From Thermococcus sp. JdFR-02 (lineage in GTDB: Archaea; Methanobacteriota_B; Thermococci; Thermococcales; Thermococcaceae), in contig MTLP01000020.1 of NCBI GenBank assembly GCA_002009975.1, positions 1 through 61,511 on the forward strand: a stretch of 61,511 nucleotides of DNA. The letters are read 5' to 3'. Under the pieces are notes generated by a model. It was not told the DNA's origin. It searched no databases and saw nothing but the letters and a program-made list of their open reading frames with translations. The position numbers and the translations under genes are program-made. Positions 12,749 through 52,705 of this stretch are shown piece by piece (the first letter of the stretch is position 1; every line of letters starts with the position of its first letter).

Positions 12749-12780
12749 TATACCTATAAGGTATAATACCTATGGGGTAT
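12749..12780 (+). promoter_or_regulatory. Tandem palindromic operator overlapping the promoter of ATPase A
   Basis: ATACC-TATAA-GGTAT (12750) and ATACC-TATGG-GGTAT (12766), 16-bp period. Confidence 0.6.
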
Positions 12781-12784
12781 AATT

Positions 12785-14131
12785 ATGAGATTCTATGATA
12801 GGGAAAGGGAAATTCGATTGTTAAAAAAAGGCAAGAGAATTGCAATAATTGGCAGGAGGAGAGTTGGGAAAACTAGGCTTGTGGAGGAAGCACTAAATCC
12901 AATAACCCTCTTCATTCCAGCAGAAAAGAATGAAGCTTTGGTATGTAAAGATTGGTTAGAAGAAATCAGGGAAAGAAGATACATTCCAGCATTAAATTCA
13001 ATGAAGGAGATAGTGGAATTTTTGATGAGAGAGAATGAAGTTATTTTTATAGATGAGCTTCAGAATGCACTGAAGGTCAATCCTTCCTTCGTTTATGACC
13101 TTCAGAGGCTTCTAGATAAATATAGAGAGCCAAAAGTTGTTGTTACGGGTTCATTGATAAGCATGTCCAAAAAACTTGTGCAAGATTACAAAAGTCCTCT
13201 CTATGGGAGATTTAACTACATCATAAAGCTTAGAGAGCTGGATTTTAAGACAATAACTGAGATAACGAGAGATTTGGGATACAGCTTTGAAGATGCAATA
13301 ATTTTGTGGTCGATTTTTGGGGGCTTACCAAAGTATTACGAAACCCTTGAGCACTTTAAGGTTTCAGTTTTGGAGTTTATAGAAATGATGTTCTTTGAAG
13401 AACCGTATCCAATGTTCAGTGAAGTTATTATGATGCTTAAAGAAGAGCTTGGAAAGGAGTATAAAACCTACTTCAGCATTCTTCAAGCGATTAGTGAGGG
13501 TAAGAATACGCTTGGTGAGATTTCTTCATATCTATCGACAAAGAGCACTAATCTGACTAAATATCTCTCCGCTCTTGAGAAGGAATATGAATTAGTCATT
13601 AAGAGAAAGAATGTCTTTGATAGGGGAAGGAACAGATATTACATCAGTCAAAACTTGATAGACTTCTGGTTCCTTTTTATGTGGAGAAATTATACCAAGC
13701 TTGAGAAGGGAGAGCTGAGGTTTGATAAGAACGAATTCAACTCCTACATCGGCAAAAAGTTCGAAGTGTTAATTGAAAACCTTGCTCAAAACTTTGTTCC
13801 ATTTGATGTTATAAAGACAGGGAAGCTTTGGGGTAAGTTTAAAGAAAAGGAAAAGGGAAAAGACTCATTTGAAATTGACATTGTAGCTTTAGGAGAAAAG
13901 GATATTGCTTTCTTTGAAGTTAAATGGGAAAATCTGAGCTTTGGAGAAGCTAAGAAGGAACTGGAAAAGCTTAGGGAAAAGGCGAATGCTGTAGGAGACA
14001 AGAGAAATAAACATTTAGTTTTAGTAGCGAAATCGGTTAAAGGAAAAGAGAAGCTGAATGCTTTGGTGTATGATTTGGAGGACATTAAGGGGATTTTTGG
14101 AGTTTTTGAATCAAAGGGCAAAGTTCCTTAA
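12785..14131 (+). CDS. Archaeal AAA-type ATPase + wHTH + DUF234/PD-(D/E)XK domain (ATPase A)
   Basis: FYDRERE, GRRRVGKT, FIDELQ, GGLPKY and EIDIVA..FFEVKW motifs. Confidence 0.9.
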   Translation: MRFYDREREIRLLKKGKRIAIIGRRRVGKTRLVEEALNPITLFIPAEKNEALVCKDWLEEIRERRYIPALNSMKEIVEFLMRENEVIFIDELQNALKVNPSFVYDLQRLLDKYREPKVVVTGSLISMSKKLVQDYKSPLYGRFNYIIKLRELDFKTITEITRDLGYSFEDAIILWSIFGGLPKYYETLEHFKVSVLEFIEMMFFEEPYPMFSEVIMMLKEELGKEYKTYFSILQAISEGKNTLGEISSYLSTKSTNLTKYLSALEKEYELVIKRKNVFDRGRNRYYISQNLIDFWFLFMWRNYTKLEKGELRFDKNEFNSYIGKKFEVLIENLAQNFVPFDVIKTGKLWGKFKEKEKGKDSFEIDIVALGEKDIAFFEVKWENLSFGEAKKELEKLREKANAVGDKRNKHLVLVAKSVKGKEKLNALVYDLEDIKGIFGVFESKGKVP

Positions 14132-14234
14132 AATTCATGCTTGCATTTGGAGGATGAGGTTATGATCGTGAATTGAAAGACTATTTAGCTGAGTTTTACT
14201 ATCATAAAACATTTTATTTTTACGAATTTATTTG

Positions 14235-14288
14235 CGAAAAATTTATATGCTTGATGCCATTTTAATTAAATGTCATTAAATATCATTA
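14235..14288 (+). promoter_or_regulatory. BRE/TATA and direct-repeat operator of the RHH-sat operon
   Basis: CGAAAA-ATTTATAT followed by tgccattt, tgtcatta and tatcatta repeats. Confidence 0.5.
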
Positions 14289-14306
14289 ACAGTGGAGGTG
14301 TTTTGA

Positions 14307-16648: not shown

Positions 16649-18061
16649 ATGGATGAAAAAATTAAAGAGAGCTTAGAAAATGTTAAAAAAGTCTTTGTAA
16701 TTGGTTTGGACTCAGCGCCTCCAGAGCTTTTATTTGATAGACTTTTGGACGATTTACCTAACATAAAGAAGCTCTTAGAAAAATCTATTTATGGTCCTAT
16801 GCAAAGCACAATTCCCGCTATTACAATTCCTGCTTGGATGGTAATGGCTACGGGAAAAACTCCTGGTGAATTAGGGCTTTACGGATTTAGGCATAGAAAA
16901 AGGGGAACCTACAACGACATTTGGATTGCTCACAGTTTAATGGTTAAAGAAAAAGCTGTGTGGGATTATATTGCTGAAAAAGGTAAAAAATCTATTTTAG
17001 TTGGTGTTCCTCCGAGCTATCCTCCAAAACCGATTAACGGTCACTTAATTTCATGTTTTATTACTCCAGATGCTTCTGTTGATTACACCTATCCAAAAGG
17101 TCTCAAAAGCGAAGTGGAAAGATTAGTTGGTGAATACATCTTTGATGTGGTCTTTAGGAAAGAAAACAGAGATGAAGTTAAAGAACAACTTTGGGAAATG
17201 ACCAAAAAGCGTTTTGAGGTTATAAAGCATCTCATCCAAGAAAAAGAGTGGGATTACTTTGAATTCGTTGAGATTGGGTTGGATAGGGTTCATCATGCCT
17301 TTTGGAAGTATTTTGACGAGAATCACCACTTACACGAGCCAAACAGCAAATATAAGAGCGTTATTCCCGATTACTACAAGCTTCTCGATAAAGAAATTGG
17401 AAAAACTTTGGAGCTTTTAGATTTGGATGAAACTGCCGTTATTATAGTCTCAGATCATGGAATAAAAGCCATGAAAGGTGCTTTTGCAATAAACCAGTGG
17501 CTTATTGAGGAGGGACTCTTGAAGATTAAAAATCCAGAGATTTTGAAGGAAAGAAGGCAGGTTAGGTTTAATGAGTTGGATGTTGATTGGAGCAAAACGA
17601 TCGCTTGGGCTTGGGGCGGCTATTACTCCAGGGTTTTCCTTAACGTTAAGGGAAGAGAGCCTCATGGAATTATCGAGCCTGAAAATTACCACAAAGTTAG
17701 GGACGAAGTTGCCGAGCTAATAAAGACTATTAGAGGACCAAATGGTGAGAAATGGGATACAAAAGTGTTCTATCCAGAGGAAATTTATCCAATAGCCAAA
17801 GGGGATAAGCCTGATATGATGGTCTATTTAGATGATTTGAACTGGAGAGCAGCGGGAACTTTGGGCTATGAAACACCTTACTTGTTGGAGAATGATCTGG
17901 GTCCAGATGATGCCGTTCATGCAGAATACGGGGTTTTTGCTCTTTATTTGCCTGGAATGGAAGAATCAAGGCAGATTAGCTTAACCATATATGATTTTGC
18001 TCCTACTGTGCTTAAGCTCTTTGGGATGGAGAAACCGCTTAGAGGGAGGAGTGTTGTATGA
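16649..18061 (+). CDS. Alkaline-phosphatase-superfamily protein (nucleotide pyrophosphatase/phosphodiesterase type)
   Basis: IGLDS, PAITIPAW (Thr nucleophile), DRVHH, SDHG and DDAVH motifs. Confidence 0.88.
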   Translation: MDEKIKESLENVKKVFVIGLDSAPPELLFDRLLDDLPNIKKLLEKSIYGPMQSTIPAITIPAWMVMATGKTPGELGLYGFRHRKRGTYNDIWIAHSLMVKEKAVWDYIAEKGKKSILVGVPPSYPPKPINGHLISCFITPDASVDYTYPKGLKSEVERLVGEYIFDVVFRKENRDEVKEQLWEMTKKRFEVIKHLIQEKEWDYFEFVEIGLDRVHHAFWKYFDENHHLHEPNSKYKSVIPDYYKLLDKEIGKTLELLDLDETAVIIVSDHGIKAMKGAFAINQWLIEEGLLKIKNPEILKERRQVRFNELDVDWSKTIAWAWGGYYSRVFLNVKGREPHGIIEPENYHKVRDEVAELIKTIRGPNGEKWDTKVFYPEEIYPIAKGDKPDMMVYLDDLNWRAAGTLGYETPYLLENDLGPDDAVHAEYGVFALYLPGMEESRQISLTIYDFAPTVLKLFGMEKPLRGRSVV

Positions 18062-18306
18062 ATAAAAGGGATATAGTTTTTATTCCTCATGCACTAGAAA
18101 GAATGAAGGATAGAGGTATCTCAGAAACCCTTATAGTTGAAGCTTTAACTAACCCAGATGAAGCTATAGAAGGGTATTTTGGGAGAAAAGTCGCCCAGAA
18201 GGTTATAGATGGAAAATTGATTAGGGTTATTTATGAAGAGCATGAAGATAAAATAATTGTGATAACAGCCTATATAACTTCGAAAGTTGATAAATACCTG
18301 AGGTGA
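18058..18306 (+). CDS. DUF4258 (RelE-like) toxin candidate
   Basis: FIPHALERMKDRGI...IRVIYE..IIVITAY pattern. Confidence 0.8.
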   Translation: MNKRDIVFIPHALERMKDRGISETLIVEALTNPDEAIEGYFGRKVAQKVIDGKLIRVIYEEHEDKIIVITAYITSKVDKYLR

Positions 18307-18311
18307 TTTGC

Positions 18312-18527
18312 ATGAAAATTTCATATGATCCAAAGTATGATGTTATGTACATCAAGTTTTCAGATGCAAAGATAGTGGATACCGTTGAAGTCGATGAGGG
18401 GATTATCATAGACTATGGTGAGCATGGGGAAATCGTAGGTATAGAGATAATCAACGCATCGGTGAGGATCAAGCCAAAACCCCTGAGCGAGATCACTATA
18501 AAAATAGAAGAACAAGCCGCTCCTTAG
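18312..18527 (+). CDS. DUF2283 antitoxin candidate
   Basis: YDPKYDVMYI..DYGEHGEIVGIEIINAS pattern. Confidence 0.82.
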   Translation: MKISYDPKYDVMYIKFSDAKIVDTVEVDEGIIIDYGEHGEIVGIEIINASVRIKPKPLSEITIKIEEQAAP

Positions 18528-19807: not shown

Positions 19808-20009
19808 GTTGCAGTGATATTCTGAGCACTTTGAGTTATTTTGGTATATAAACGCGATCTAATATTTATAAACATTTGATTCTTCAAAATCAAAATATTT
19901 ACATGTTTCTTGATTTCATACAATCAATAGCAATATTTAATTCAGCTACCTTAATATTCGGCAATGATCATAGGGAAGTTTATCTTGACTTAAATTATTA
20001 AATAACCTC

Positions 20010-21338
20010 CTATCTCAACATATCTTCTAAATCAAAGACATGAAAGCCCTTTTCCCTGAGATCCTCTTTTCCATCCAGAGACTTGGCTATTATTCCATAG
20101 TGGAAGTCTCCTTCGAACTCGACCATTCTTGCCTTTCTCCTCAGAGCTCTAAGTATGTTTTCAGTCTTCTTCTCATTGAGGTCACTCCATTTAACTTCGA
20201 AGAGGAATATTTCATCGTCTCCAAGTGCAATTATGTCAATTTCCTCTCCCTTAAACCACCAGCGCCCGATTTCCTTAAATTCAACCGGTCTTTTCAAAAT
20301 TAGAAATTCTCTTGCGACATCTTCAAACTTCTTTGAAAACACCTTAGTCAAAGAGTCTTCATTAACCTCTACCTTTCCCAGAGAAATCCTGCCCTGATTT
20401 GGGTATACTAGAGTAAACCATGAAAGAAGGAGGTTGTTTCTGATTTTATATACACTCCTCTTTTTCTTCACTAGTATTGGGGTTTCCTTTTCAATGAAGC
20501 CCAAGCGCAACAGGTTCTCTATATATGGATAGATGCTCCTTGCGGGCTTTCCTATAAAGTTGGCAATCTCTTCAAGCCTTGTATTTCCATGGGAGATGGC
20601 ACTCAGTATTGAGAAATATACCTTGAGTTCTCTGAGCTCCTGGGAGAGGAGTATGTATGGTTCATTGTAGAAAAAGCCACCATCACTTAAGAATTCCTCT
20701 TTTACAAGGTTTTCGATCGTTTTATGCCTCTTGGCAACATTGAGATAGGTTGGCGTTCCACCGATGAGCATGTAAGCTTGGATCCCATAATCTTTATCTT
20801 CAAAGAATTTTAAAGCGTTTAGGTAATCAAGCTCTTTCAGATGGATATCTCTCGTTCTTCTCCCGTAGAGGGGAGAGGCGTAGCTTAGAACTTCATCCCA
20901 CATCATTCCCAGCAGAGAGCCGGAGATGACGAGCATAACGTCTTTTTTGCTCAACTCGTGGTCCCATACTCTCTGGAGATCACTCAATATCTTCTTATCA
21001 CTTTTTATGGCATAGGTGAACTCATCTAAGATTATTAAGGTTTTTTCTGGAAGTTTATCAGCCATATATGTGAAAAGTTCTTTCCAATCGTTCAGTTCGA
21101 GCTTTTCGAGCCACTTATCATTAAGAAATTTTGCCAGCTCACGTTTGAACTCCTCAATTTGGATCTCTTTTACAGCTTCAGGAAACGTGAAGAAGAATGA
21201 GTTTTTGTTTTTGGCAAATTCCTGAAGAAGTCTTGTTTTCCCAACTCTCCTTCTACCGTAAAGGACAACAAAAGAAGGGGTGTTTTCCCACTCTCTCTGA
21301 AGCAGGGCGGTTTCTTTCTCTCTATCCACAAACTCCAT
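20010..21338 (-). CDS. Archaeal ATPase + wHTH + DUF234 nuclease-like domain (ATPase B)
   Basis: FVDREKE, YGRRRVGKT, LDEF, SPLYGRRT and EIDIIA..FEVKW motifs. Confidence 0.9.
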   Translation of the reverse strand: MEFVDREKETALLQREWENTPSFVVLYGRRRVGKTRLLQEFAKNKNSFFFTFPEAVKEIQIEEFKRELAKFLNDKWLEKLELNDWKELFTYMADKLPEKTLIILDEFTYAIKSDKKILSDLQRVWDHELSKKDVMLVISGSLLGMMWDEVLSYASPLYGRRTRDIHLKELDYLNALKFFEDKDYGIQAYMLIGGTPTYLNVAKRHKTIENLVKEEFLSDGGFFYNEPYILLSQELRELKVYFSILSAISHGNTRLEEIANFIGKPARSIYPYIENLLRLGFIEKETPILVKKKRSVYKIRNNLLLSWFTLVYPNQGRISLGKVEVNEDSLTKVFSKKFEDVAREFLILKRPVEFKEIGRWWFKGEEIDIIALGDDEIFLFEVKWSDLNEKKTENILRALRRKARMVEFEGDFHYGIIAKSLDGKEDLREKGFHVFDLEDMLR

Positions 21339-21386
21339 ACCACCACCATATTAATCATTGTCTCAAAAATATAAATAAGTTTCGAT

Positions 21387-21414
21387 TAATCATGATTATA
21401 TATAATCGTGATTA
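21387..21414. promoter_or_regulatory. Tandem palindromes upstream of ATPase B
   Basis: TAATCATGATTA (21387) and TAATCGTGATTA (21403), 16-bp period. Confidence 0.6.
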
Positions 21415-21426
21415 GAATATATTGTT

Positions 21427-21693
21427 TTGATGAAGGACATTTATACAGAGGATTACCTGAGAAAGCTGGGTTTGAATGAGAGGCAGATTAGAGCCGTGCT
21501 CTATGTAAAGGAGAGAGGGAAGATTGGGAATAAAGAGTATCAGGAGTTGTTTAATGTTTCGAGACAGACAGCAACAAGGGATTTGAGTGATTTGATTAGA
21601 TTGGGAATTTTCGAACGTGTCGAGAAAGGGAAGTATAAACTAAAGACTCACCATGAGTCAAATATGAGTCAAAAGGTGAAATCCCGTGAGTGA
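21427..21693 (+). pseudogene. Isolated C-terminal DeoR-like HTH fragment of a RecG-C/AlbA-type regulator
   Basis: LGLNERQ..I.NKEYQELFNVSRQTATRDLSDL; no RBS; normally the tail of a larger protein. Confidence 0.6.
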
Positions 21694-21790
21694 GGCAAGC
21701 GAAGCCTTAGAAAGCAACGATAATATTTCCCAAGTCTGAGTTGTTCAGAAAACCAAAAGTGTTATATATAATACTTTCTAATTTTTGGAC

Positions 21791-22726
21791 ATGAATACTC
21801 TATCAAAAATGGAAGTTAGAACACTTTTGAAACTTAAGAGAGAGGAAACTATAATTGAGTTAGCTAATGAATTAGGTTTATCCATTTATCGAACCTCTAT
21901 TCTTGTTGCATCCCTCAAAAGAAAAGGTTTGGTAAAGACGAAAAAAAGAGGGAAGTATAAAATAGTGTCGTTAAGTGAGGCAAAGCCTGCGGAACTTTTT
22001 AAAGGGTTGGTCTCTAAGTTTGGTCATATGCCCCTTGATAGCATTTTAAGTGGGAAAAGTCTACCACTTCTAGCCGTTCTTAAGGTCACTCCTCTAAGTG
22101 CCTATGAGCTCTGCATAAAGAGTAGCCTTTCAAGGAGTACTCTCTACTACATACTTAACAAGCTTTCTAATTACGGCATCATTGGAGAGAAAGACGGAAA
22201 ATATTTTCTAGTGGAGAGATATAGGTTGTTTCATGAGTTTGCTAAAGAATTTTATGAGCTACAAAATTCTATTAAGGCTAGGGAGTTCTGTAAAGATTCC
22301 GCTGTGATATGGAGTGGAGTTGGGGAATTTATTCTGTTAACTAGGGAGTACAAAGGAAAGGATGCTGAAAACTTCCACTTAACTGGGCTTGAACGATTTA
22401 GTGATTTCGGTATAGATCTTATTGGAACTGGGCAGTATCATTATTATTATTCTGAAAAAGTAAAGGGGCTTTCCCTAGAAGAGATTATTGTGCATGCACT
22501 ACTCATTGATTTCAGCACAAGAACAATTTTGTATTCAATAGTTCTCTTGCTAGCGTATAAGGATAAGATAAATCAAAAGAAGCTTTTTAAGCTTGGTAGA
22601 AAATACGATGTCAGCGTGAGCGAATTGCTGGAATATCTCGAAGGCAAAGAAGTTAAAAAGTATCCCTACCCCTCTATGGAGGAAGTGAAAGAAATTTTCA
22701 AAATGTACTTTGGTGAAGAGAAGTGA
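21791..22726 (+). CDS. Double winged-helix protein, putative antitoxin/regulator of the downstream nucleotidyltransferase
   Basis: Two HTH repeats (IELANELGLS..; AYELCIKSSLSRSTLY); stop overlaps the next start. Confidence 0.65.
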   Translation: MNTLSKMEVRTLLKLKREETIIELANELGLSIYRTSILVASLKRKGLVKTKKRGKYKIVSLSEAKPAELFKGLVSKFGHMPLDSILSGKSLPLLAVLKVTPLSAYELCIKSSLSRSTLYYILNKLSNYGIIGEKDGKYFLVERYRLFHEFAKEFYELQNSIKAREFCKDSAVIWSGVGEFILLTREYKGKDAENFHLTGLERFSDFGIDLIGTGQYHYYYSEKVKGLSLEEIIVHALLIDFSTRTILYSIVLLLAYKDKINQKKLFKLGRKYDVSVSELLEYLEGKEVKKYPYPSMEEVKEIFKMYFGEEK

Positions 22727-22974
22727 GTGTGGTAACTAGAGAAAAAATAATATCTGAATTTCATCTGCTGGAAGAGAAAGCTAGATTACTGTCCATTAAG
22801 CCTGTGCAGGTTTACATGATTGGCGGTGGAAATTTGGCTCTTAGAGGACTCAAAAGTGCAACAAAGGATATTGACATTGTAGTGTTAGATGAAATACAGT
22901 TTTCTCTCCTGCAAAACCTTTTAGAGAGTCCACAATTATTGCCTGTTTATGTGAGGCACTTATTACAAACTTAA
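22723..22974 (+). pseudogene. Truncated DUF6036/AbiEii-like nucleotidyltransferase
   Basis: IGGGNLALRGLKSATKDIDIV NTase motif; ORF ends after only 83 aa. Confidence 0.65.
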
Positions 22975-23104
22975 AGCCATCATAATTGAAGGGTGAACCC
23001 ATGAGTGAAGCTATCTCCAAGCTCAGAAATCAGGGAGCAGGGCTCTTCTATCTTTAGACATTGATTTTGTTGCTTTTGAAAGCAAATTTAGGAAATTAAA
23101 GAGT

Positions 23105-24511
23105 TTAGCTATCCCTCAAAATTTGGAGGATTGCCCTCTCATCTAGCACTATTAACTCATCCGGCACGTTCTTCACCTTCCTAGCTACCAGAAGGTAATA
23201 GCTCTCCCCCTTCCAATTGCTCAGCTCGACTTTTCTCTTCAGCTCTTCAAGAAGTTTTTCACCGTTTATAGGCTTGTTTCTCCACTTGCACTCGCCAAAT
23301 AAGGCTCTTTTTCTGTCCCGACTGAGGGCTACTATGTCTATTTCATAGACTTTTCGCTGTCCATTTTCTCTATAATAGCCCCAATGTCGCCCTATCTCGA
23401 TGAATTTGAAGGGTAGTTCTTTCTTGCTATTTAAAATCCAGAGCAATTCTCTGCAGATGAAATCGAACCTCTTTCCAGTGTAGTCAGGCAACATGGAGAT
23501 TACTTCTCTCCCAAGATCTTCACGCATTGCCTCATACTCACTCTGCCTCGGATGAACAAAACGGAACCAGAAGTTGAGCAGTGAATGATTTATATAAAGT
23601 ACTCTTTCCTTTCCGAGGATGGCTTTATCGTAGGAGAGCAACTTAAAATAATCCACTAACTCTTTAACCTGTCTTGTCAACGACGTTTCTTCCCGATTCA
23701 TGTATCCTGCTATTTTGCTAATTGATGTGGCTCCATTAGCCACGGCTTCAAGTATATCGTAATACACTCCAGAACGCCTCCCGAACTCAAGGGAGAGTAT
23801 CCTCGGCACTTCTTCCTCTAACGGTGCCGAGAGAGAGAAGAAAAGAGTGCTAATGATTTCCTCTGCACTCTTTCCTTCAAGTCCTTCATCTTCAATAGCT
23901 ACGTAGTACTTGGGAAAGCCGCCAAAAACTGCGTAAAGCTTCATAAAGTCATCAATATCTTTTATTCCAAGTTCCCTTGACATTTTATAACTGGCTTTAA
24001 TTCCAAGCTCCTTCATATGGAGTTCTCGCTTTATCCTCTCGTAGAGCGGCTCATTTGAATCTCTGAAGAGCTTTTCAATCATTCCAACTGTTGAACCGGT
24101 AAAGATCAGCATGAGGTTTTTCCTGTTCTCGTGGATGTCTATGAACTTTTGAAGGGTTGAGAACACTGAAGGCTCAACCCTCTGGAAGTCCTGAAATTCA
24201 TCGAAGACGACAACGCCATTAAATCTTTCGAAAAGTACTTCAAAAAACTCATTCCAGCTCGATATACGTTCATACTTTGTTATGACTCCTTTTTTCCTCA
24301 GAATTTCTTCGTACTCTCTCAAAAGGGATTTGGAAGTCTTACCTCTATTAACGAAGAAATAGAGGTCTTTTTCTCCTAAGAACTCAAGGAGGAGTCTCGT
24401 TTTGCCAACTCGCCTTAATCCATAAACCATGATAGTGTAGAGCTTCTTTTTTGAGCGTTCTCTTGCTTCTTCAAGTATTTTCATCTCAACCTCTCTGTCG
24501 ATGAAACGCAT
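23105..24511 (-). CDS. Archaeal ATPase + wHTH + DUF234 nuclease-like domain (ATPase C)
   Basis: MRFIDREVE, YGLRRVGKT, FDEFQ, GGFPKY and EIDIVA..FGECKW motifs. Confidence 0.9.
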   Translation of the reverse strand: MRFIDREVEMKILEEARERSKKKLYTIMVYGLRRVGKTRLLLEFLGEKDLYFFVNRGKTSKSLLREYEEILRKKGVITKYERISSWNEFFEVLFERFNGVVVFDEFQDFQRVEPSVFSTLQKFIDIHENRKNLMLIFTGSTVGMIEKLFRDSNEPLYERIKRELHMKELGIKASYKMSRELGIKDIDDFMKLYAVFGGFPKYYVAIEDEGLEGKSAEEIISTLFFSLSAPLEEEVPRILSLEFGRRSGVYYDILEAVANGATSISKIAGYMNREETSLTRQVKELVDYFKLLSYDKAILGKERVLYINHSLLNFWFRFVHPRQSEYEAMREDLGREVISMLPDYTGKRFDFICRELLWILNSKKELPFKFIEIGRHWGYYRENGQRKVYEIDIVALSRDRKRALFGECKWRNKPINGEKLLEELKRKVELSNWKGESYYLLVARKVKNVPDELIVLDERAILQILRDS

Positions 24512-24514
24512 TAT

Positions 24515-24545
24515 ATTCACCTACTGAATTATTCACTTAGTGAAT
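24515..24545 (-). promoter_or_regulatory. Tandem palindromic operator between TATA box and start of ATPase C
   Basis: ATTCA-CCTAC-TGAAT (24515) and ATTCA-CTTAG-TGAAT (24531), 16-bp period. Confidence 0.6.
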
Positions 24546-24592
24546 ATATAAATTTATCTGTGTAGGAAAACGGTCCAAAAAAGTTGGAGATT

Positions 24593-24623
24593 CCTGACCT
24601 CTCCTCCTGAAGGGCGAGGCTTG
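24593..24623 (-). repeat. Solo IS200/IS605-end-like palindromic element, copy 1
   Basis: Minus strand caagcctcgcccttcaggaggagaggtcagg; near-identical to 50032-50058. Confidence 0.55.
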
Positions 24624-24661
24624 AGGGAGAAAAAAATGTTAAGGTGGAGGAATGTTAGGCT

Positions 24662-25900
24662 TCAATTGACCTTTCCGATCAGCCATTCCCAAAGGGGGAC
24701 AACATTCACCTTTCTTCCCCCTTCTGCTATCGTTCCTTTCTCATCCCATGTTATTACACTCAGCCTTTTGGCCTTTAACATCTTTCCTACCTCCACTAGG
24801 TTCTTAACTTCCCTTCCATAATTATCTTCGGTTATCTCTTTTGTGACCTGTATCACCTCCTCCACCTTTAACCCTTTTTTCAAAATGAAGTCGACCTCTC
24901 TTTTATCGTCCCGCCAGTAGTACAGTTTATAACCTCTTCTCAAGAGTTCAATAGCAACTGCATTTTCCATTTTCCTGTCAAAATCTGGTGATGGAGTAAA
25001 ACCTGCACTCAAAAAGGCGGGATCAATAATATAGGCTTTTCTCGGAGATTTCAAGCTTTCTCGTATCTTGTAAGAAAAGCGCTCTGCTTTGACAATTATA
25101 AAGGCCTCCTCAAGATATTCAACGTAATTTTTCACAGTGTGCACACTGCCAATGTTTAGAGCATTCTTCAGCTTCGTGTAGCTGAACTCTCTAGCAAAGT
25201 TAGAGACAAGATAGAGAGAGAGCTCGTAAAGGGTTGAGGAGTACTTCACGTTCCTTCGCTTAACTACATCCTTCATTATGATGCTGTCAAAAAGCATTCT
25301 CCCATAGTCACGATAATCATAGCCCTTGACAATCACCTCTGGAAAGCCCCCTTTTTCCAGATACTCGGAAAGTTTTGAGAGCATTTTTCCTTCCTGAGAG
25401 CTCATCTCCACCTTTGGCTCAATTTTTTTAGCCCTCAAGGATTCCCTGAAGGAGAATGGAAAAACTTTAACTTCAACATATCTCCCCGTTAGATGGGTTG
25501 CCAGCTCGCTGCTTAGCAGTTTCGAATTCGAGCCAGTAAGAACGACGTTATAGCCCAATCTTCTGAGCCTATTGACAAAAAGTTCCCAGCCCTTAACATT
25601 CTGGATTTCATCGAGAAAGATAGTTTTAAACTCTCCATAAACCTCATGAGCAAGCTTTAAGATCTCGTTGAGGTCTTCTATTTTGGCCAATACCTCATCA
25701 TCGAAGTTTACATAACCAAAATTTTCTTTAAGAGTGTTTACTGCCAAAAAGCTTTTTCCCGCCCTTCGAGGTCCAGTTATTACCTTTATCAGGTCAGTTG
25801 GAAGGTACTGCTTGAGTTTTCCCTCAGCTTCTCTCTCAACATAGTGTTCTTTTCTCAACTTTTCTAATTCATACTTTTGGGCTATTATGTGCTCCCTCAT
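24662..25900 (-). CDS. AAA_14 + DUF4143 ATP-binding protein (ATPase D)
   Basis: GPRRAGKS, LDEIQ, TGSNS, LTGR, GGFPE, EN.VA and EVDF motifs. Confidence 0.9.
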   Translation of the reverse strand: MREHIIAQKYELEKLRKEHYVEREAEGKLKQYLPTDLIKVITGPRRAGKSFLAVNTLKENFGYVNFDDEVLAKIEDLNEILKLAHEVYGEFKTIFLDEIQNVKGWELFVNRLRRLGYNVVLTGSNSKLLSSELATHLTGRYVEVKVFPFSFRESLRAKKIEPKVEMSSQEGKMLSKLSEYLEKGGFPEVIVKGYDYRDYGRMLFDSIIMKDVVKRRNVKYSSTLYELSLYLVSNFAREFSYTKLKNALNIGSVHTVKNYVEYLEEAFIIVKAERFSYKIRESLKSPRKAYIIDPAFLSAGFTPSPDFDRKMENAVAIELLRRGYKLYYWRDDKREVDFILKKGLKVEEVIQVTKEITEDNYGREVKNLVEVGKMLKAKRLSVITWDEKGTIAEGGRKVNVVPLWEWLIGKVN

Positions 25901-26046
25901 CTTGTGCACCTAAGAAAATATAGTGCATAAAATTTAAAAAATTTGTGCAGTTTAGTGCATATTCTTGAGTTATGGTCCACTTCTTCAAGGGTCTTTCTGA
26001 GGAAGCCGAAGTTGGAGATAATTCTCAATTAATGCTTTGAGGGAAA

Positions 26047-26125
26047 ATGAAGGTTCTAGTAACGGCAGAAGCTGGTTTTATAGGAGCAATTTTAAAGCTG
26101 AGAATTGGGAAATAAACAATTTTGA
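26047..26125 (+). pseudogene. Decayed 5' fragment of an RmlB-like NAD-dependent dehydratase
   Basis: Reads MKVLVTAEAGFIG, then frameshifted SNF and NWEINN, resembling the RmlB N-terminus. Confidence 0.5.
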
Positions 26126-26212
26126 GCTTATTTCAAGCTCATTAGAAAAGTTGATGTGAGTATACAAAATGCTTATATATTTGTATTACAAATGTATCTG
26201 CAGGTGAATTAC

Positions 26213-26443
26213 ATGGGAAATGTTATTAGTATTCGTGTTCCGCCGGAAATTAAGCACGAAATGGATAAGTTAAAGGGTGAAGTTAACTGGAGTGAGGAAA
26301 TTAGGGAATTCATAAAAAAGAGGATTAAAGAATACAAAAAGAGAAAAGCCCTCCAGGAGGTTGTAGCCTACATCCAAACCTTGCCCGAGGCACCAAAAGG
26401 AACAGCACAAGAGTTAGTGAGGGAGGACCGTGATAGTCATTGA
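26213..26443 (+). CDS. VapB-type antitoxin (RHH-like)
   Basis: VISIRVPPE..VNWSEEIREFI..VREDRD; overlaps the PIN gene; upstream palindrome tttgtattacaaa. Confidence 0.85.
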   Translation: MGNVISIRVPPEIKHEMDKLKGEVNWSEEIREFIKKRIKEYKKRKALQEVVAYIQTLPEAPKGTAQELVREDRDSH

Positions 26444-26846
26444 CTCCTCGGCTTTTTCAAAGTTTTTATTAAAGGAAGAAGGCTGGGAAAAGGTAATCCC
26501 CTACTTAGACCCAGGCTTAGAACCACATGCCGTAGATATGTTAATCATTGAGACAACAAATGTGATATGGAAATACATGAAAAAGTACAAGCTAATAACG
26601 AGAGAACAAGCTATAGGACTTTACAGGCAGATGACAAAGCTCATAAGGGAGGAAGTTATAACGCTGGAGCCAGGGGAGAAATATTTGCAGGGAGCTTTGA
26701 AAATTGCTATAGATTATGACATTTCCATTTATGACAGCCTGTTCTTGGCACAGGCTGGAAATTTAAAAGCCGAACTGATTACAAGCGATAAAAGACAAAG
26801 AGACGTGGCGAGAGAAATTGGACTGGGAGTAGTGTACATAAAATAA
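26430..26846 (+). CDS. VapC PIN-domain toxin
   Basis: VIDSS, E, YDSLFL and ITSD PIN acidic motifs. Confidence 0.9.
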   Translation: MIVIDSSAFSKFLLKEEGWEKVIPYLDPGLEPHAVDMLIIETTNVIWKYMKKYKLITREQAIGLYRQMTKLIREEVITLEPGEKYLQGALKIAIDYDISIYDSLFLAQAGNLKAELITSDKRQRDVAREIGLGVVYIK

Positions 26847-26925
26847 CGCTCCGTATCCGGGTTACTTTTGTTTATGCCTGCTAAAACCAAAATATTTAAA
26901 TATTCGAGTCATGCTTATTATAATC

Positions 26926-28296
26926 ATGATTCGAAAATTTGTAAACCGGAAGAGGGAGCTCGAAGTCCTGGAGAGAGCATGGAGGAAAGGCTTTCGGCTT
27001 TTTGTGGTCTACGGGAGAAGAAGGGTGGGAAAGACTGCCCTTCTGAGGAAACTCTTGGAAAATAAAAGGGGCATATATTTTCTCTGCTCCCAGAGGGGGT
27101 ATGGGAAAGACATCAAAAGATTTTCTCACGAGATAAGTTCTTTTATTGGTACTCCGGTAAGATTCGAAAGCTTTAGGGATGCATTTAGGTTCCTAAAGGG
27201 ACAGGGGAGGCTTTTGGTGATTCTTGATGAGTTCCCTTACTTGATAGAGGCAGACAAGGGCGTTACATCTGAGTTTCAGGAGGTGGTGGATATAGTGCTT
27301 GAGGGTTCAGAGATCACCATTATCCTCTGCGGTTCGAGCGTTGGAATGATGGAGCGTGAGGTTCTCAGCTACAAGAGCCCTCTCTACGGGCGAGCAAGTG
27401 GGGTTCTGAAGGTCAAACCATTCCGCTTCTTCGATATGGTGGAATGGTTTGGAAAGGACTTTGAGAAGCTTTTAAGACTCTATGGGGTCACGTGGGGGAT
27501 TCCCAAGTACATGGAATTCTTTAAAACGGGGAGCGATGATGAGATTATCAACAACTTCTTTGACCCGAGTGCATTTCTTTTCAATGAGGCGAGGCTTCTC
27601 CTCATGGAGGAACTGAGGAATCCAACCAGATATATGCAGATTATCGAGGCCATAGCCATGGGAAAAACCCGGCTTAACGAGATCGCTCAGTACGTTGGGA
27701 TGGATGCCAAAGATCTATCTGCATATCTTAGGGTGCTCTCGAATCTTGGAATTGTGAGGCGAGAAGTTCCAGTAACAGAGAGGAAAGCCAAGAGAGGGAT
27801 TTATGTTATAGAAGATGAGTACTTCCGTTTTTACCACCGCTTCGTCAGTCCGCATTATGAGGAGATAGACTCCCTCAATCCTGAGCCAGCAATTCAGGAT
27901 TTCCTGGGGAACTTTAACACCTATCTTGGAAAGACCTTCGAAAAAGCAGCCAAAGAGTTTTTAATAGAACTTAATAAGTATGGGAGGTTGCCGTTTAAAT
28001 TTACAGAGATCGGAAAGTGGTGGCATAAAAATGAGGAAATTGATCTCGTTGTGCTGAACAAAAGGAAAAATACGGCCCTGCTGGTGGAGGTAAAGTGGAA
28101 GGAGTTGAGCGAGAAAGAAGCGAGGGGGGTTTTGAAAGATTTAAAGCGTAAAAGTGGGCTTGTTGGGTTAAAAAACTGGCAGAAGTATTACGGGTTGATA
28201 GCGAAGGGCATTGAAGGTAAGGAAGCTCTTAAAAGTGAGGGCTGGTTCCTGTGGGATTTAGAAGATTTCAAGAATTTGAATTTTAAGATTAGATGA
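26926..28296 (+). CDS. Archaeal ATPase + wHTH + DUF234 nuclease-like domain (ATPase E)
   Basis: FVNRKRE, YGRRRVGKT, LDEFP, SPLYGR and EIDLV..VEVKW motifs; start ATG lies within palindrome TAATCATGATT. Confidence 0.9.
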   Translation: MIRKFVNRKRELEVLERAWRKGFRLFVVYGRRRVGKTALLRKLLENKRGIYFLCSQRGYGKDIKRFSHEISSFIGTPVRFESFRDAFRFLKGQGRLLVILDEFPYLIEADKGVTSEFQEVVDIVLEGSEITIILCGSSVGMMEREVLSYKSPLYGRASGVLKVKPFRFFDMVEWFGKDFEKLLRLYGVTWGIPKYMEFFKTGSDDEIINNFFDPSAFLFNEARLLLMEELRNPTRYMQIIEAIAMGKTRLNEIAQYVGMDAKDLSAYLRVLSNLGIVRREVPVTERKAKRGIYVIEDEYFRFYHRFVSPHYEEIDSLNPEPAIQDFLGNFNTYLGKTFEKAAKEFLIELNKYGRLPFKFTEIGKWWHKNEEIDLVVLNKRKNTALLVEVKWKELSEKEARGVLKDLKRKSGLVGLKNWQKYYGLIAKGIEGKEALKSEGWFLWDLEDFKNLNFKIR

Positions 28297-28340
28297 TAAT
28301 ACTAAAGTGAATCAATAAGCGAAGCTCTGCGGAGGATTGG

Positions 28341-48704: not shown

Positions 48705-49178
48705 TTAATCACCCACTTCTTTCCTCAGCTTCTCAATGTTGTCAATTAACACTATTCCCTCTTTTTTGCATGCATTTTCAAAGTCATTATCAAAGGATAT
48801 CAGATATTTGATACCATAAAACTTGCAGGTGGCTAAAATGAAAGCATCATTTGGCAAAAGACCATATCTATCAATTAAATCGCGGGAAATGCGGTAAACG
48901 AACTCGTTAACTTCTAAGAGCTTAAAGAGCTCCAGAAGTTGATAGCAGGGAGTTTTGTCCATACTTTTAACGAGCTCCGGTTTCTTTTTTAGAGTTAGGA
49001 CACTTTTCCCGGAAACAGTCTTTAAATAAATGAAAATAACCTCTGAGATAACTATATCGTTTATGAAGTTCTCTCCATCTTTAATTATTAATTCTTGTAA
49101 GAGATCTCTCGCATTTGGATTTCCCTTTAAATGTTCAATTAAGACACTTGAATCAATAAAGGCTTGAAAGCTCTTCAT
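48705..49178 (-). CDS. VapC PIN-domain toxin
   Basis: IDSSV, ISEV, LPNDA and SFDNDF motifs. Confidence 0.9.
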   Translation of the reverse strand: MKSFQAFIDSSVLIEHLKGNPNARDLLQELIIKDGENFINDIVISEVIFIYLKTVSGKSVLTLKKKPELVKSMDKTPCYQLLELFKLLEVNEFVYRISRDLIDRYGLLPNDAFILATCKFYGIKYLISFDNDFENACKKEGIVLIDNIEKLRKEVGD

Positions 49179-49329
49179 ATAAATCAACCTTCAGTTCTTT
49201 TGCAGACTTTTTGGTTTTAATTAACCCGAAAGTCTTATCCAAAATATCTTTCTTCTTTTTCAGCTCATTAATCATCCTCTTAACATCTTCTTCAAGTCCT
49301 TCAGGAACAACAATCTTTATTTCCCCCAT
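49153..49329 (-). CDS. 58-aa antitoxin (not in the ORF track)
   Basis: MGEIKIVVPEGLEEDVKRMINELKKKKDILDKTFGLIKTKKSAKELKVDLYEELSSLY; GGTGGTGA RBS; overlaps the PIN start. Confidence 0.8.
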   Translation of the reverse strand: MGEIKIVVPEGLEEDVKRMINELKKKKDILDKTFGLIKTKKSAKELKVDLYEELSSLY

Positions 49330-50198: not shown

Positions 50199-50375
50199 AT
50201 GAGGAGTAAATATAAAAAGATTGAATTTGAATTTAAGCTTCCCGATGGGGTAAACATAGAGGAAATTAGAGAGGGAATTAGGCGGATTATTTTAAAGTGC
50301 CTTAAAGAAGAAGGATTGAGTGAGAAAGAAATTGAAGAAGTCAAGATAAATATCGAGCTGGTGGAAGAGAAATGA
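50199..50375 (+). CDS. 58-aa small protein, first gene of a three-gene TA-like operon (not in the ORF track)
   Basis: MRSKYKKIEFEFKLPDGVNIEEIREGIRRIILKCLKEEGLSEKEIEEVKINIELVEEK; ATGA overlap with the next gene. Confidence 0.65.
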   Translation: MRSKYKKIEFEFKLPDGVNIEEIREGIRRIILKCLKEEGLSEKEIEEVKINIELVEEK

Positions 50376-50572
50376 AGGATTTAAAAGTCGAGATTATTCT
50401 TCCAAATAAAATAAAAAAGAGAAGGATCAGTAAGGAAATAAAAGAATACATAGAAGCAGTTAAAGCTGCGGAGAGGTTAAGCAAACTCCTTGATGAGGTG
50501 AATTTTGATGAAATCGAAAAAGAAGCTGAGAACTTCCGGAAGAAGTTCAAGTTCAGAGATTTTTCTCATTGA
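50372..50572 (+). CDS. Putative antitoxin
   Basis: 66-aa charged protein ending in FRKKFKFR and overlapping a PIN gene. Confidence 0.7.
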   Translation: MKDLKVEIILPNKIKKRRISKEIKEYIEAVKAAERLSKLLDEVNFDEIEKEAENFRKKFKFRDFSH

Positions 50573-50933
50573 CACCTCGGTTTTGATTGATCATTTCAAA
50601 AGGAGAACACATTTAGAGATCTGGGGGAATGCCATTTCGACAGTTACCCTTTTGGAGTTTTTAAGAGGTGTGCCGGGTGAAGAGAGACGGGTGGCATTTC
50701 TTAAGGGGTTGCAGAAGCTGTTTAAAATAGAACCAGTTGATGATCTCGTTGTTTTAACATACTGTAAATTATATCGAGCTTTGAGGCGTAATGGAGAGCT
50801 GATTGAAGACGCTGACCTTTTGATTGCAGCCACAGCAATCGCCAAAGGTTATGTTCTGTGGACTAAGAACATTAAACACTTTGAACGTTTAGAAAAGTTT
50901 GGTTTAAGAGTTTTTAAGGAGAAATGTTCCTGA
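50505..50933 (+). CDS. VapC PIN-domain toxin (start uncertain)
   Basis: LIDTSVLID, DADLLIAATA and TKNIKHF motifs. Confidence 0.88.
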   Translation: MMKSKKKLRTSGRSSSSEIFLIDTSVLIDHFKRRTHLEIWGNAISTVTLLEFLRGVPGEERRVAFLKGLQKLFKIEPVDDLVVLTYCKLYRALRRNGELIEDADLLIAATAIAKGYVLWTKNIKHFERLEKFGLRVFKEKCS

Positions 50934-51066
50934 TGATGTACCTCCATATGCTCTTAAAAAGCGAATTGAAGAACTTGAAAAGGTAAGGAAAGAGAAATGA
51001 AGTAGATAAAGAAAAAACGGCTTGTAATTGACATCAATACTCTGATTTCAACCTTATCACGGATGC
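50925..51066 (+). pseudogene. Decayed antitoxin-PIN remnant
   Basis: Fragments VPDDVPPYALKKRIEELEK* and KRLVIDINTLISTLSR. Confidence 0.45.
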
Positions 51067-51367
51067 TTTGTTCTTTAAACCCTTTTTTCTGCATCTACTG
51101 AAATCATTCGATAGTAGTAAAGAGTTGCTTAATTGAAAATTTTATTAACTTCCTGATCAGAATAGTCAGAATATGAAGAAAAATTACTATCTTGCAAAAA
51201 GCGAACAGTTAGTTTTCAACGTTATTAAAACATAATGTGTTTGAAGTTAACTCTAACTACTAACTCCCAATATTTTCTCTTTTTGATCTTCCTAACTGTT
51301 GAGCATGTATAATTTGTATTCCATAAAATATAAAAACTATAAAAATTTATATTCTATGGGATATAAA

Positions 51368-52705
51368 ATGTTGAAGAAGAATGAGATAATAGAAGTATTG
51401 AGTGATAGCAATTTTTGGGGGAAAAGACAGGAGACCGGAATAGAAAGAGAGGAATATCTAAAGAGGATGGAGAGATTGGCTAAACCCAGAGATTTTTCAT
51501 TATCAATAATTGGAGTTAGGAGAGCTGGAAAAACTTTCTTGGCTAAACAGTTTTTAAAAAGGAAAATAAATGATGAAGGATTAAAACCAGAACAAACGCT
51601 GTATGTTAACCTAGAAGAACCAAAATTTCATCCTTATTTGAGTCTAGAACTTTTGGATGAGATATACAAAGCTTATAGAACATTTGTTAACAGAGAAGAG
51701 TTTGCAGTTATGGTGCTGGATGAAATACAAAACGTTGAAAATTGGGAAAAATGGGTTAGGGCTTTAATGGAAAAAGAAAACGTCAAGGTTATAGTTACAG
51801 GTTCAACTTCTTCTTTGTTAAAAAGAGAGGTATCCACCGTACTAACCGGCAGAAATTTAACATTAGAAATTTTCCCTCTTAGCTTTAGCGAATTTTTAAA
51901 ATTTAAAGGATTGTATGTTAAAAAACCACTGAATATGATCAAAAACAAGGAAAGAATTGAGATTTATCTTTGGGAATACCTAACATTTGGCGGATTTCCC
52001 AGGGTTGTTCTAGAAGAGGATGAGTTTCTAAAAAAGGAAATACTAAAAGAATTATTTGAAGGAATTGTAATGAGAGACGTCGTGTTTAGACATCAATTTA
52101 GAGAGATAAACGGTGTAAAGATCATAGCGGAGCTGGCTATAAATAGCTTTTCTTCCTTGAAGAGCATAAACAGTTTTAAAAATGATCTATCTGGCATATT
52201 AAAGAAAAATGTCTCCCCTAATTTTGTTGGAGAAGTCCTAAATGCCCTTGAGGAGAGCTATTTAATATTTCAGATACCTCCTTTTTCTCCAAAAATAAAG
52301 GACATCAAAAAACATCCAAAAAAGATATATGTCATTGACAATGGTCTGATAAATGTAATATCGCTAAGCTTTTCCAAAAACATTGGCAGATTGGCTGAAA
52401 ACTTGGTGGCATTACATCTAATTAGGAAATATGGGAAAGACAATATCTTTTATTACAAAGGAAAGAGAGAAGTGGACTTTGTAGTTAAAAAGGGATTAAG
52501 AGTAGAGAAAGTTATTCAGGTCACCTGGGACTTTGAAAAAAGCTATGAAAGAGAGATTGAAGCTTTGCTCGAGGCTTTGAATAGCTTTAATCTAAAGGAG
52601 GGCATAATTGTGACAGAAAAGCAAAAAGGGGAGGAAACCTATGGTGACAAAAAGATAAAAATTCTGCCCCTTTGGGAATTCCTCCTTTTAGATTCAGAAA
52701 TTTAA
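51368..52705 (+). CDS. AAA_14 + DUF4143 ATP-binding protein (ATPase F)
   Basis: GVRRAGKT, LDEIQ, LTGR, GGFP, ENLVA and EVDFV motifs. Confidence 0.9.
   Translation: MLKKNEIIEVLSDSNFWGKRQETGIEREEYLKRMERLAKPRDFSLSIIGVRRAGKTFLAKQFLKRKINDEGLKPEQTLYVNLEEPKFHPYLSLELLDEIYKAYRTFVNREEFAVMVLDEIQNVENWEKWVRALMEKENVKVIVTGSTSSLLKREVSTVLTGRNLTLEIFPLSFSEFLKFKGLYVKKPLNMIKNKERIEIYLWEYLTFGGFPRVVLEEDEFLKKEILKELFEGIVMRDVVFRHQFREINGVKIIAELAINSFSSLKSINSFKNDLSGILKKNVSPNFVGEVLNALEESYLIFQIPPFSPKIKDIKKHPKKIYVIDNGLINVISLSFSKNIGRLAENLVALHLIRKYGKDNIFYYKGKREVDFVVKKGLRVEKVIQVTWDFEKSYEREIEALLEALNSFNLKEGIIVTEKQKGEETYGDKKIKILPLWEFLLLDSEI

Follow-up and report, generated by a model that had tools for sequence, protein, structure and literature searches.

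What are the short palindromes that stand in front of six ATPase genes on one archaeal contig, and which protein reads them? We analysed a 61,511-nucleotide (nt) stretch of Thermococcus sp. JdFR-02 (contig MTLP01000020.1, positions 1 to 61,511; the window), part of a 2.36-Mb genome with 38% G+C, in which a sequence-only reading had picked out six genes (A–F; Table 1) that join an ATPase, a winged helix-turn-helix (wHTH) and a nuclease-like domain behind operator-like motifs of their own. Comparison with related and distant homologues yielded a relation that is new here, in that, of all parts of the protein, the recognition helix of its winged helix is the best predictor of how similar the box arms are. 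Taken together, the comparisons make it likely that these genes are self-contained cassettes, each product binding private operators and repressing its own synthesis.

Six ATPase genes of two families

Pfam and PADLOC assignments bear out a division into four DUF234-type and two DUF4143-type ATPase genes. A, B, C and E score 54.7–90.8 bits against ATPase_2 (cut-off 33.2) and 46.9–113 bits against DUF234 (cut-off 22.5) and are members of PDC-S27 (ATPase_2 PF01637 plus DUF234 PF03008; COG1672), with PADLOC model E-values of 2e-35 to 6e-43. D and F, at 114.6 and 121.7 bits against AAA_14 and 78.7 and 61.1 bits against DUF4143 (cut-off 28.1), are members of PDC-S01 (AAA_14 PF13173 plus DUF4143 PF13635; COG1373), with E-values of 5e-112 and 1e-107. 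The genome holds about 16–18 members of the two types together. Residues G31, G36, K37, D104, E105, E390, D392, E407 and K409 are invariant in 63 DUF234-type sequences including A, B, C and E, whose Walker A/B and PD-(D/E)XK catalytic motifs are intact. In the DUF4143-type proteins D and F, E335, D337 and Q351 are invariant (..EVDF.. and ..IQV..), without an invariant ExK. Both families are classed as PD-(D/E)XK in PMC3424549, from which the predicted nuclease fold of the DUF4143 type is taken.

The AlphaFold 2 (AF2) model of the gene C protein (predicted local distance difference test (pLDDT) 94.5, predicted template modelling score 0.91) lays out an AAA+ module, a wHTH and a nuclease core (E390/D392, E407/K409), in line with the central wHTH and C-terminal PD-(D/E)XK-like domain proposed earlier. 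Its predicted wHTH comprises helices 248–258, 264–271 and 279–288 and wing strands 292–297 and 303–307, with the recognition helix at about residues 275–288. A model of the gene D protein (pLDDT 90.2) places a wHTH at residues 221–291, with helices 221–233, 241–248 and 253–265, the last being the recognition helix, and wing strands 269–274 and 287–291; confidence in the predicted wHTH is high for both types. Foldseek searches with the gene C model returned 2qen and 2fna as nearest structures, followed by CED-4/Apaf-1/NLR and Orc1/Cdc6 proteins. The suggested resemblance to signal transduction ATPases with numerous domains (STAND) therefore stands for the CED-4/NLR-like core fold and falls for the sensor repeats: Pfam finds no TPR, WD40, LRR or other sensor repeat domain, and the AAA+, wHTH and nuclease modules fill the 412–468 amino acids (aa). 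A homodimer prediction for the C protein (two copies, without controls) scored 0.00 and speaks neither for nor against dimer binding.

Palindromic boxes over the core promoters

Read directly in the letters, the motifs of all six genes lie at the coordinates given for them, and most of their description holds. The ATACC-N5-GGTAT units of A and ATTCA-N5-TGAAT units of C each occur twice, with a 16-bp period and 5-5-5 geometry; in both promoters the first arm touches the TATA box, overlapping it in A, and the second unit stops 3–4 nt short of the ATG (4 nt in A; ATG of C at 24511). B has two perfect TAATCRYGATTA boxes at the claimed 16-bp period, and their location needs correction: they lie 49 nt upstream of the ATG, directly upstream of the B recognition element (BRE) and TATA box (TCGAAAC..TATTTATAT). 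B is also the exception in having no perfect box between TATA and ATG, a decayed half-box alone lying near the start. In E, one degenerate and one good TAATCATGATT box recur with a period of 15, not 16; the good box does hold the ATG at 26926, as had been stated, and the motif family claimed to be shared with B is weak in the first box, where GAGTCATGCTTA matches the B box at 8 of 12 positions. D has the four GTGCA boxes described, two on either side of TATA, and F has the two imperfect palindromes at 51317 and 51348, with A/T-only arms, the second stopping 2 nt before the ATG.

TATA lies 32–33 nt from the ATG in four genes (A, C, D and F), 30 nt from it in B and 23 nt in E. Most family promoters also have, upstream of TTTATATA-type TATA boxes, a CGAAA-type element that we take to be the BRE on the pattern of Thermococcales promoters. 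Because of this spacing and the BRE upstream, the boxes cover TATA and the expected start site. By the archaeal rule on TATA-to-start spacing, on which we place transcription starts here, transcripts should begin at the ATG or no more than about 10 nt from it, with the boxes filling the interval between TATA and start.

Table 1 Coordinates of the six ATPase genes and of the elements of their promoters in the window
Feature	Position	Strand	Content
Gene A	12785–14131	+	ATPase_2, wHTH and DUF234, PDC-S27 (Pfam, PADLOC); N-terminus MRFYDRE
Promoter A	12738–12780	+	BRE-like CGAAA 12738–12742; TATA TTTTTATA 12745–12752; ATACC-N5-GGTAT units 12750–12764 and 12766–12780
Gene B	20010–21338	-	ATPase_2, wHTH and DUF234, PDC-S27 (Pfam, PADLOC); TrmB-like match residues 236–286
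Promoter B	21352–21414	-	boxes TAATCACGATTA 21414–21403 and TAATCATGATTA 21398–21387; BRE TCGAAAC 21385–21379; TATA 21377–21369; decayed box ATGATTA 21358–21352
Gene C	23105–24511	-	ATPase_2, wHTH and DUF234, PDC-S27 (Pfam, PADLOC)
Promoter C	24515–24552	-	TATA TTTATATA 24552–24545; ATTCA-N5-TGAAT units 24545–24531 and 24529–24515
Gene D	24662–25900	-	AAA_14, wHTH and DUF4143, PDC-S01 (Pfam, PADLOC)
Promoter D	25904–25959	-	four TGCAC boxes on gene strand (plus-strand GTGCA at 25904, 25923, 25945 and 25955); TATA 25930–25942
Gene E	26926–28296	+	ATPase_2, wHTH and DUF234, PDC-S27 (Pfam, PADLOC); HTH_5 match residues 243–283; N-terminus MIRKFVNR
Promoter E	26895–26934	+	TATA TTTAAATA 26895–26902; box GAGTCATGCTTA 26906–26917; box TAATCATGATTC 26921–26932; outer TTCGA arms 26903–26907 and 26930–26934
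Gene F	51368–52705	+	AAA_14, wHTH and DUF4143, PDC-S01 (Pfam, PADLOC)
Promoter F	51316–51365	+	box TATTCCATAAAATA 51317–51330, overlapping TATA ATATAAAA 51328–51335; box TATATTCTATGGGATATA 51348–51365

Conservation of box arms in orthologues

For conservation, scored as mean pairwise identity, we drew 134 non-redundant family genes from this genome together with up to 96 others of its taxonomic family. In 24 C-type genes (52–91% protein identity) the arms score about 1.0, against 0.4–0.7 for the first spacer, 0.2–0.3 upstream of TATA and 0.30 at fourfold degenerate sites (n = 8 sites). Arms are invariant in all 10 of 10 A-type genes, aligned on the boxes because indels of 1–24 nt blur anchoring on the ATG (spacers 0.3–0.8, upstream of TATA 0.2–0.4, fourfold sites 0.36, n = 20 sites), and in 14 of 14 ATCC-type genes (spacers 0.4–0.8, upstream of TATA 0.2–0.4, fourfold sites 0.38, n = 10 sites). 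The palindromes are thus conserved upstream of orthologues while spacers, upstream flanks and fourfold sites drift, a pattern showing that the boxes are under purifying selection.

The individual layouts of the window recur as well. A has orthologues in 11 other genomes (70–86% identity). The placement of boxes upstream of BRE/TATA in B is found in its two closest orthologues (L222 and L223, 81–82% identity), and in the remaining B orthologues the boxes lie downstream of the same BRE/TATA. The D boxes are kept in orthologues L091–L094, the E arrangement in orthologue L020 and the TTCGA clade, and box 1 plus TATA of F in 18 F-type genes (51–73% identity), the closer of which also keep box 2. 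The second box of some clades falls within the open reading frame (ORF), whose first codons it dictates (ATG ATA CTC ATG AGT, giving MILMS; MILMSKF.. in L001, L003, L009 and L011). In the E clade the in-ORF TTCGAA arm uses the arginine codon CGA in 6 of 6 genes, a codon that makes up 2.3% of the genome's arginine codons, and the start of gene E itself (26926–26934) has the rare CGA within ATT CGA AAA. Where operator halves overlap coding sequence in this way, the N-terminal codons appear to be under double constraint. With mismatches allowed (the relaxed detector described below), 90 of 120 family genes of other genomes carry a tandem palindrome.

About 45–65 nt upstream of a C-type ATG in one relative (L067, genome G023) we observed an orphan TAATCATGATTAGTCGAAAC module, consisting of a B/E-type box and BRE. 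Cassettes that insert side by side seem to leave promoter–operator modules behind or to reuse them.

Rarity of tandem palindromes in the genome

To count as an exact tandem palindrome, a site had to have 5-nt arms that include a G or C, a spacer of 0–7 nt and the same unit again 10–40 nt away. Across the 2.36-Mb genome this gave 26 matches, counted as 21 distinct sites, of which 7 lie at family-gene starts. Between −90 and +20, exact palindromes precede 6 of 14 family genes and 5 of 2204 other ORFs (Fisher 8e-12), and with mismatches allowed the figures are 9 of 14 and 150 of 2204 (Fisher 6e-8); similar palindromes are not, then, equally common before other genes. At least two of the five non-family matches precede classical autoregulator genes, ArsR-like and AbrB/VapB-like, and the detector therefore picks up real operators. 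Four or more same-strand TGCAC within 60 nt occur nowhere in the genome except the D promoter. The scans require G or C in the arm and so do not reach the boxes of F, for which the case rests on orthologue conservation.

Sites noted in the same scan include TTGTT-N7-AACAA twice between an ArsR-like wHTH gene and a KaiC-like ATPase gene (G000 C1:56157-56200), CAACT-N1-AGTTG twice before an AbrB/VapB-like gene (G000 C19:32875-32910) and TAACA-N3-TGTTA twice about 150 nt upstream of a cas2-like ORF (G000 C7:108820-108860).

As single units, ATACC-N5-GGTAT has three copies in the genome, two of them at A (expected 0.0 in a Markov-1 simulation of 2 Mb in total, scaled to the genome), and ATTCA-N5-TGAAT has six, two of them at C (expected 7.1). 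The third ATACC-N5-GGTAT copy (60683–60697) stands alone as one unit, at the 3′ end of an ORF for a HEPN protein (60681–60965, minus strand). Elsewhere in the genome single units of the A, C, C15 and C16 types occur at or below Markov expectation, and the idea of a regulon of these units was dropped on that count.

Box classes, protein clades and the recognition helix

On a quick IQ-TREE tree of 83 DUF234-type proteins, nine box classes match nine clades, with 10 label changes against a minimum of 9 and 53.6 for shuffled labels, a comparison in which related genes share labels anyway. The subfamily-specific operators suggested from the window are thereby recovered as ATTCA, ATACC, ATCCW and TTACY arms with N5 spacers, TTACTY-N2-RAGTAA, TTACTC-N2-GAGTAA, GATAAT-N4-ATTATC, TAATC-N2-GATTA and TTCGA-N19-23-TCGAA. 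Between the ATACC, ATCCW, ATTCA and TTACY clades both arms shift jointly, and the 5-N5-5 geometry with its 16-bp period stays. DUF4143-type genes have 5-N7-5 units (TGTGA/TCACA, TGTGG/CCACA, TTACC/GGTAA and TGGTA/TACCA) in pairs 34–37 bp apart, around or just upstream of TATA, and the TGCAC boxes of D are a variant of this pattern.

Co-variation of operator and wHTH, a test proposed beforehand, came out positive in the DUF234 type. In 149 genes of this type, reduced to 71 representatives with less than 60% identity outside the wHTH, we compared arm similarity (shared 4-mers) with identity at residues 275–283, which read ETSLTRQVK in C, while controlling for the rest of the protein, and obtained a partial Spearman correlation of 0.169, a value that none of 2000 label permutations attained. 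When a 9-residue window was slid along the protein (153 windows), the strongest predictor began at residue 274 or 277 in 6 of 6 settings, which combined representative thresholds of 0.5, 0.6 and 0.8 with arm lengths of 4 and 5; a decoy built from palindromic 4-mers of coding DNA gives −0.01 at the best windows, and window variance does not account for the ranking. Residue 280 is the best single column. Because phylogeny inflates permutation tests, the window ranking is the stronger argument of the two.

Individual pairings recur across wide distances: an S[LI]TRQ helix with ATTCA across phyla, an xxGKY helix with TTACT/AGTAA-type arms in Thermococci, DHVE2, Coriobacteriia and Anaerolineales, and an ATS[LM][SA]RP helix with CATAATG boxes in several bacterial phyla. 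The DUF4143 type shows a qualitative pattern, VHTV occurring with TGCAC, TGTGA or TGTGG boxes and VETV with TTACC. Secondary co-variation peaks lie outside the wHTH (C numbering), in segment 232–243, whose helix 234–243 directly precedes the wHTH, and in AAA+ segments 55–66 and 196–208; they could reflect extra DNA contacts or coupling between domains.

The same boxes in distant phyla

A scan for the DUF234 family across the genomes of 185,579 species gave 80 loci, 73 of them usable, spread over many archaeal and bacterial phyla. Exact tandem palindromes occur between −90 and +20 in 12 of the 73 (relaxed, 50 of 73), against 0 of 285 coding windows of the same loci (relaxed, 21 of 285) and 0 of 365 shuffled sequences (relaxed, 19 of 365). 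The ATTCA-N5-TGAAT pair precedes C-like genes (42–49% identity) in five metagenome-assembled genomes (MAGs; L141–L145) labelled Aenigmatarchaeota (two), Woesearchaeota, Bathyarchaeota and Thaumarchaeota, and ATACC-N5-GGTAT occurs in one DHVE2 MAG. In loci of different phyla with the same boxes the ATPase gene is the sole shared gene and no neighbour is common, which agrees with the view of these genes as self-contained; promoter, boxes and gene therefore travel as a cassette. The comparative evidence supports a unit formed by the gene and about 45–75 bp of promoter and boxes.

The Woesearchaeota MAG also holds a DUF4143-type gene (L142:430-600; 38% identical to F) with two perfect GATTATAATC palindromes about 37 bp apart around CGAAAGCTTTATATA. 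It lies directly upstream of the C-like DUF234 gene with ATTCA boxes, so that both families cluster in this DPANN genome too. A conserved D–C gene pair was considered and rejected, the L142 gene being 33% identical to D and having different boxes. Family members cluster in other genomes as well, with four matches at G016:C1:644783-649220 and several at G020:C1:894398-900528 and G024:C1:750290-754441.

Proposed mechanism and rival explanations

We propose that each gene is a one-gene cassette in which a core archaeal promoter and short palindromic boxes, four in D and two in the others, accompany an ORF for an AAA+ ATPase–winged helix–PD-(D/E)XK-type protein. The winged helix of the encoded protein would recognise these boxes as its cognate sites, with the protein probably binding as a dimer on each palindrome. 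Because the boxes cover TATA, the TATA-to-start interval and start site or, in B, the BRE, their occupancy should block TATA-binding protein and transcription factor B (TBP/TFB) or RNA polymerase, and this negative autoregulation would hold the nuclease at a low, self-limited level. Helix and box would have diversified jointly into private pairs, which would therefore let up to about 17 paralogues share a genome with little cross-talk and let control move with the cassette. More speculatively, the ATPase may gate DNA binding and the nuclease may be a dosage-sensitive cargo. Physical binding, dimer binding, repression rather than activation and the roles of ATPase and nuclease are what we infer from sequence.

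Several observations weigh against this autorepression model. A tandem palindrome is missing, by the relaxed detector too, from 30 of 120 family genes in relatives and from 23 of 73 distant homologues. The partial correlations are modest (0.12–0.21), and Mantel-type permutations overstate significance among related sequences. In a scan for class-specific columns over nine classes the wHTH was not enriched (6–7 of the top 40 columns, against 13.6% expected) and the top columns spread over the whole protein, a scan without power because divergence between the classes is deep. Two ATCCW subclades differ in their helix (TITKY and SVSKY) yet share outer arms, and in L157, L199 and L203 an xSKY helix is paired with boxes without ATAC. 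TAATC-N2-GATTA is common to four paralogue promoters (7 of 11 genomic sites) and not private to one gene. The boxes of B and of the TTACC-N7 group of DUF4143 genes lie upstream of BRE/TATA, a position that also fits activation. The first box of E is degenerate, and F, with its imperfect, A/T-only boxes, is statistically the weakest case.

The boxes might instead be operators bound by other regulators, such as host factors or small nearby HTH proteins. A small HTH ORF (21427–21693; 88 aa, weak HTH_DeoR match) lies beside B, divergent from it, together with a TrmB-like gene (21785–22726), one TAATC box serves four paralogues, and the assignment of the boxes to the ATPase rests on sequence comparison. 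In an RNA-library contig of a 95–99% identical relative, B and its boxes are kept up to 21430 and the TrmB-like gene is kept, whereas 21431–21740, and with it the small HTH ORF, is replaced by 144 other letters. (The RNA sources are four metatranscriptome runs of one study, whose contigs within 20000–28400 cover B and the TrmB-like gene and leave out C, D and most of E; the replaced segment appears to be a small indel hotspot at the edge of the B boxes.) At least nine box types would require at least nine separate regulators, loci of different phyla with identical boxes have no neighbour gene in common, and box sequence follows the recognition helix of the ATPase more closely than any other region of it, so we regard outside regulators as very unlikely. 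Chance symmetry of A/T-rich promoters, or hairpins in the 5′-leader RNA, comes closest to an account of F, with its A/T-only arms, and of the weak first box of E, and TATA boxes are themselves quasi-palindromic. For A–E it is contradicted by rarity (5 of 2204 other ORFs and 0 of 365 shuffles with exact boxes) and by arms that stay invariant against fourfold sites at 0.30–0.38 identity. With TATA 23–33 nt from the ATG, the archaeal promoter rule leaves most of each box upstream of the expected start and untranscribed, and 5-bp A/T-rich stems would presumably be unstable in a hyperthermophile; we give this explanation almost no weight.

A protein that binds the boxes could also use them mainly outside transcription, as an assembly or loading site (in the manner of Orc1/Cdc6 or Rep–iteron systems), a self-marker or an insertion target. 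After 2qen and 2fna the fold is nearest to STAND (CED-4/NLR) proteins and to Orc1/Cdc6, whose wHTH reads repeats beside the initiator's own gene; DUF4143-type site pairs, 34–37 bp apart, flank an A/T-rich stretch; cassettes move between phyla; and an orphan box module lies upstream of the C-type promoter in L067. Yet the A/T-rich stretch is a canonical BRE/TATA fixed 23–33 nt from the ATG, and the boxes keep to the 5′ end of the gene instead of flanking it on both sides; no gene in the window is followed by a second copy of its own boxes. This promoter geometry argues for control over a non-transcriptional role, which we consider quite unlikely as the main one, and an assembly role is in any case compatible with autoregulation. 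Unlikely too, in our estimate, is a further step in which helix–box pairs form a specificity code, each paralogue being an ATP-gated nuclease for one private palindrome and its own promoter the single sanctioned "self" site that represses the gene and parks the protein. If it were true, the 10–17 paralogues per genome would be a repertoire of sequence-specific, methylase-free restriction-like sensors, or would exclude incoming cassettes of the same type, and avoidance of cross-talk between paralogues would drive their diversification. The A, C, C15 and C16 units are not clearly avoided in the genome, an observation that weighs against restriction-like targeting of single sites.

Genomic neighbourhood

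The six genes do not form a single contiguous block. A stretch of 8.3 kb holds B, C, D and E as well as a VapBC-like pair and two HTH genes; A stands between a PALP-enzyme gene and sulfate-assimilation genes, and F, flanked by PIN and RHH-PIN modules, adjoins a glycosylation cluster. None of the six has a restriction-modification or CRISPR gene next to it. Toxin–antitoxin-like modules are dense: DUF4258/DUF2283 inside the sulfate-assimilation row (18058–18527), a small ORF with PIN between D and E (26156–26846), PIN genes (48705–49187 and 50505–50933), RHH plus PIN directly after F (52775–53493) and HEPN (60681–60965). They mark a variable, island-like region.

In the convergent gap between a TauE gene (ending at 19807) and the 3′ end of B (20010), an orphan TGATT-N6-AATCA pair (19877–19930) is spaced 34 bp apart around an A/T-rich stretch, a geometry like that of the DUF4143-type pairs. 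No family gene follows it, the nearest ORF (87 aa, 20040–20303) being on the opposite strand, and the pair may be a relic of a lost cassette. Near the contig end, ORF 61009–61413 matches the Cas12f1-like/TnpB TNB domain (E 4e-25) and is probably a remnant or edge of an IS200/605-type element.

Relation to known systems and implications

Winged-helix proteins of the MarR, ArsR/SmtB and TrmB types repress their own genes through palindromic operators over their own promoters, and some archaeal repressors act at TATA or the start site. The genes described here share with them the wHTH, tandem short palindromes, overlap with TATA or start, and private sites, and the wHTH of B and E gives weak Pfam matches to TrmB and HTH_5. 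Unlike those regulators, which are small and dedicated, the wHTH here is internal to an ATPase–nuclease of 412–468 aa. Of the features expected of an autorepressor, the wHTH and conserved palindromes on the own core promoter are present, and helix co-variation is found in the DUF234 type. In type II restriction-modification systems, C proteins are small separate HTH proteins whose tandem palindromic sites (C-boxes) move with the cassette; here the putative regulator is an internal domain, and no methylase partner is present. In Orc1/Cdc6 proteins, too, a wHTH that follows an AAA+ module reads repeats beside the gene (Foldseek 2qby, 1w5t, 1fnn and 2v1u, E about 1e-8). The proteins here differ in having an extra C-terminal nuclease domain, many paralogues per genome and boxes on BRE/TATA at a fixed distance from the ATG, and no sign of a replication origin emerged, in an analysis not aimed at one.

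Coupling of an ATPase to a promoter-binding domain is described for mycobacterial IniR, whose ATPase domain was modelled on SSO1545 (PMC5760070). MalT and IniR pair an ATPase of the same structural neighbourhood (2fna being the second Foldseek match) with a DNA-binding domain, and differ in being large activators of other genes with sensor repeats, where our genes have a nuclease domain and sites at their own promoters. Type Ia ParA, an HTH-carrying ATPase, represses its own promoter (PMC8465637). By analogy only, C proteins and ParA resemble the present genes in placing a potentially harmful or dosage-sensitive DNA enzyme under tight self-control.

PADLOC lists PDC-S27 and PDC-S01 as phage-defence candidates, and a 2026 survey (PMC12988326) treats them as abundant in archaea with experimental validation pending, counts 9986 and 3503 copies of the two families in 7747 archaeal genomes and ranks PDC-S01 as the fourth most common defence overall. 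The clustering of family members is island-like behaviour, and a defence role for them is a candidate only. Published work on DUF234, DUF4143 and PDC-S27/PDC-S01, taken without supplements, offers classification and census and leaves operators, autoregulation and DNA target unmentioned; in the portions available, PMC3424549, PMC1913061, PMC12988326, PMC5760070, PMC10133366, PMC6267482 and 10.64898/2026.10.19.760177 make no mention of operators of these genes. The present analysis adds candidate operators, autoregulation and a DNA target for PDC-S27 and PDC-S01.

We know of no activity, target or regulation established for either family, and a conserved, clade-specific site that co-varies with the protein's own recognition helix would be the first concrete handle on them. 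The predicted specificity residues are about 277–281 (C numbering), column 280 being the strongest. For annotation, the palindromes should not be mistaken for transposon ends, terminators or operators of neighbouring operons. Private pairs of helix and box would explain how many paralogues coexist in one genome and how a nuclease gene may be transferred between phyla with its own brake.

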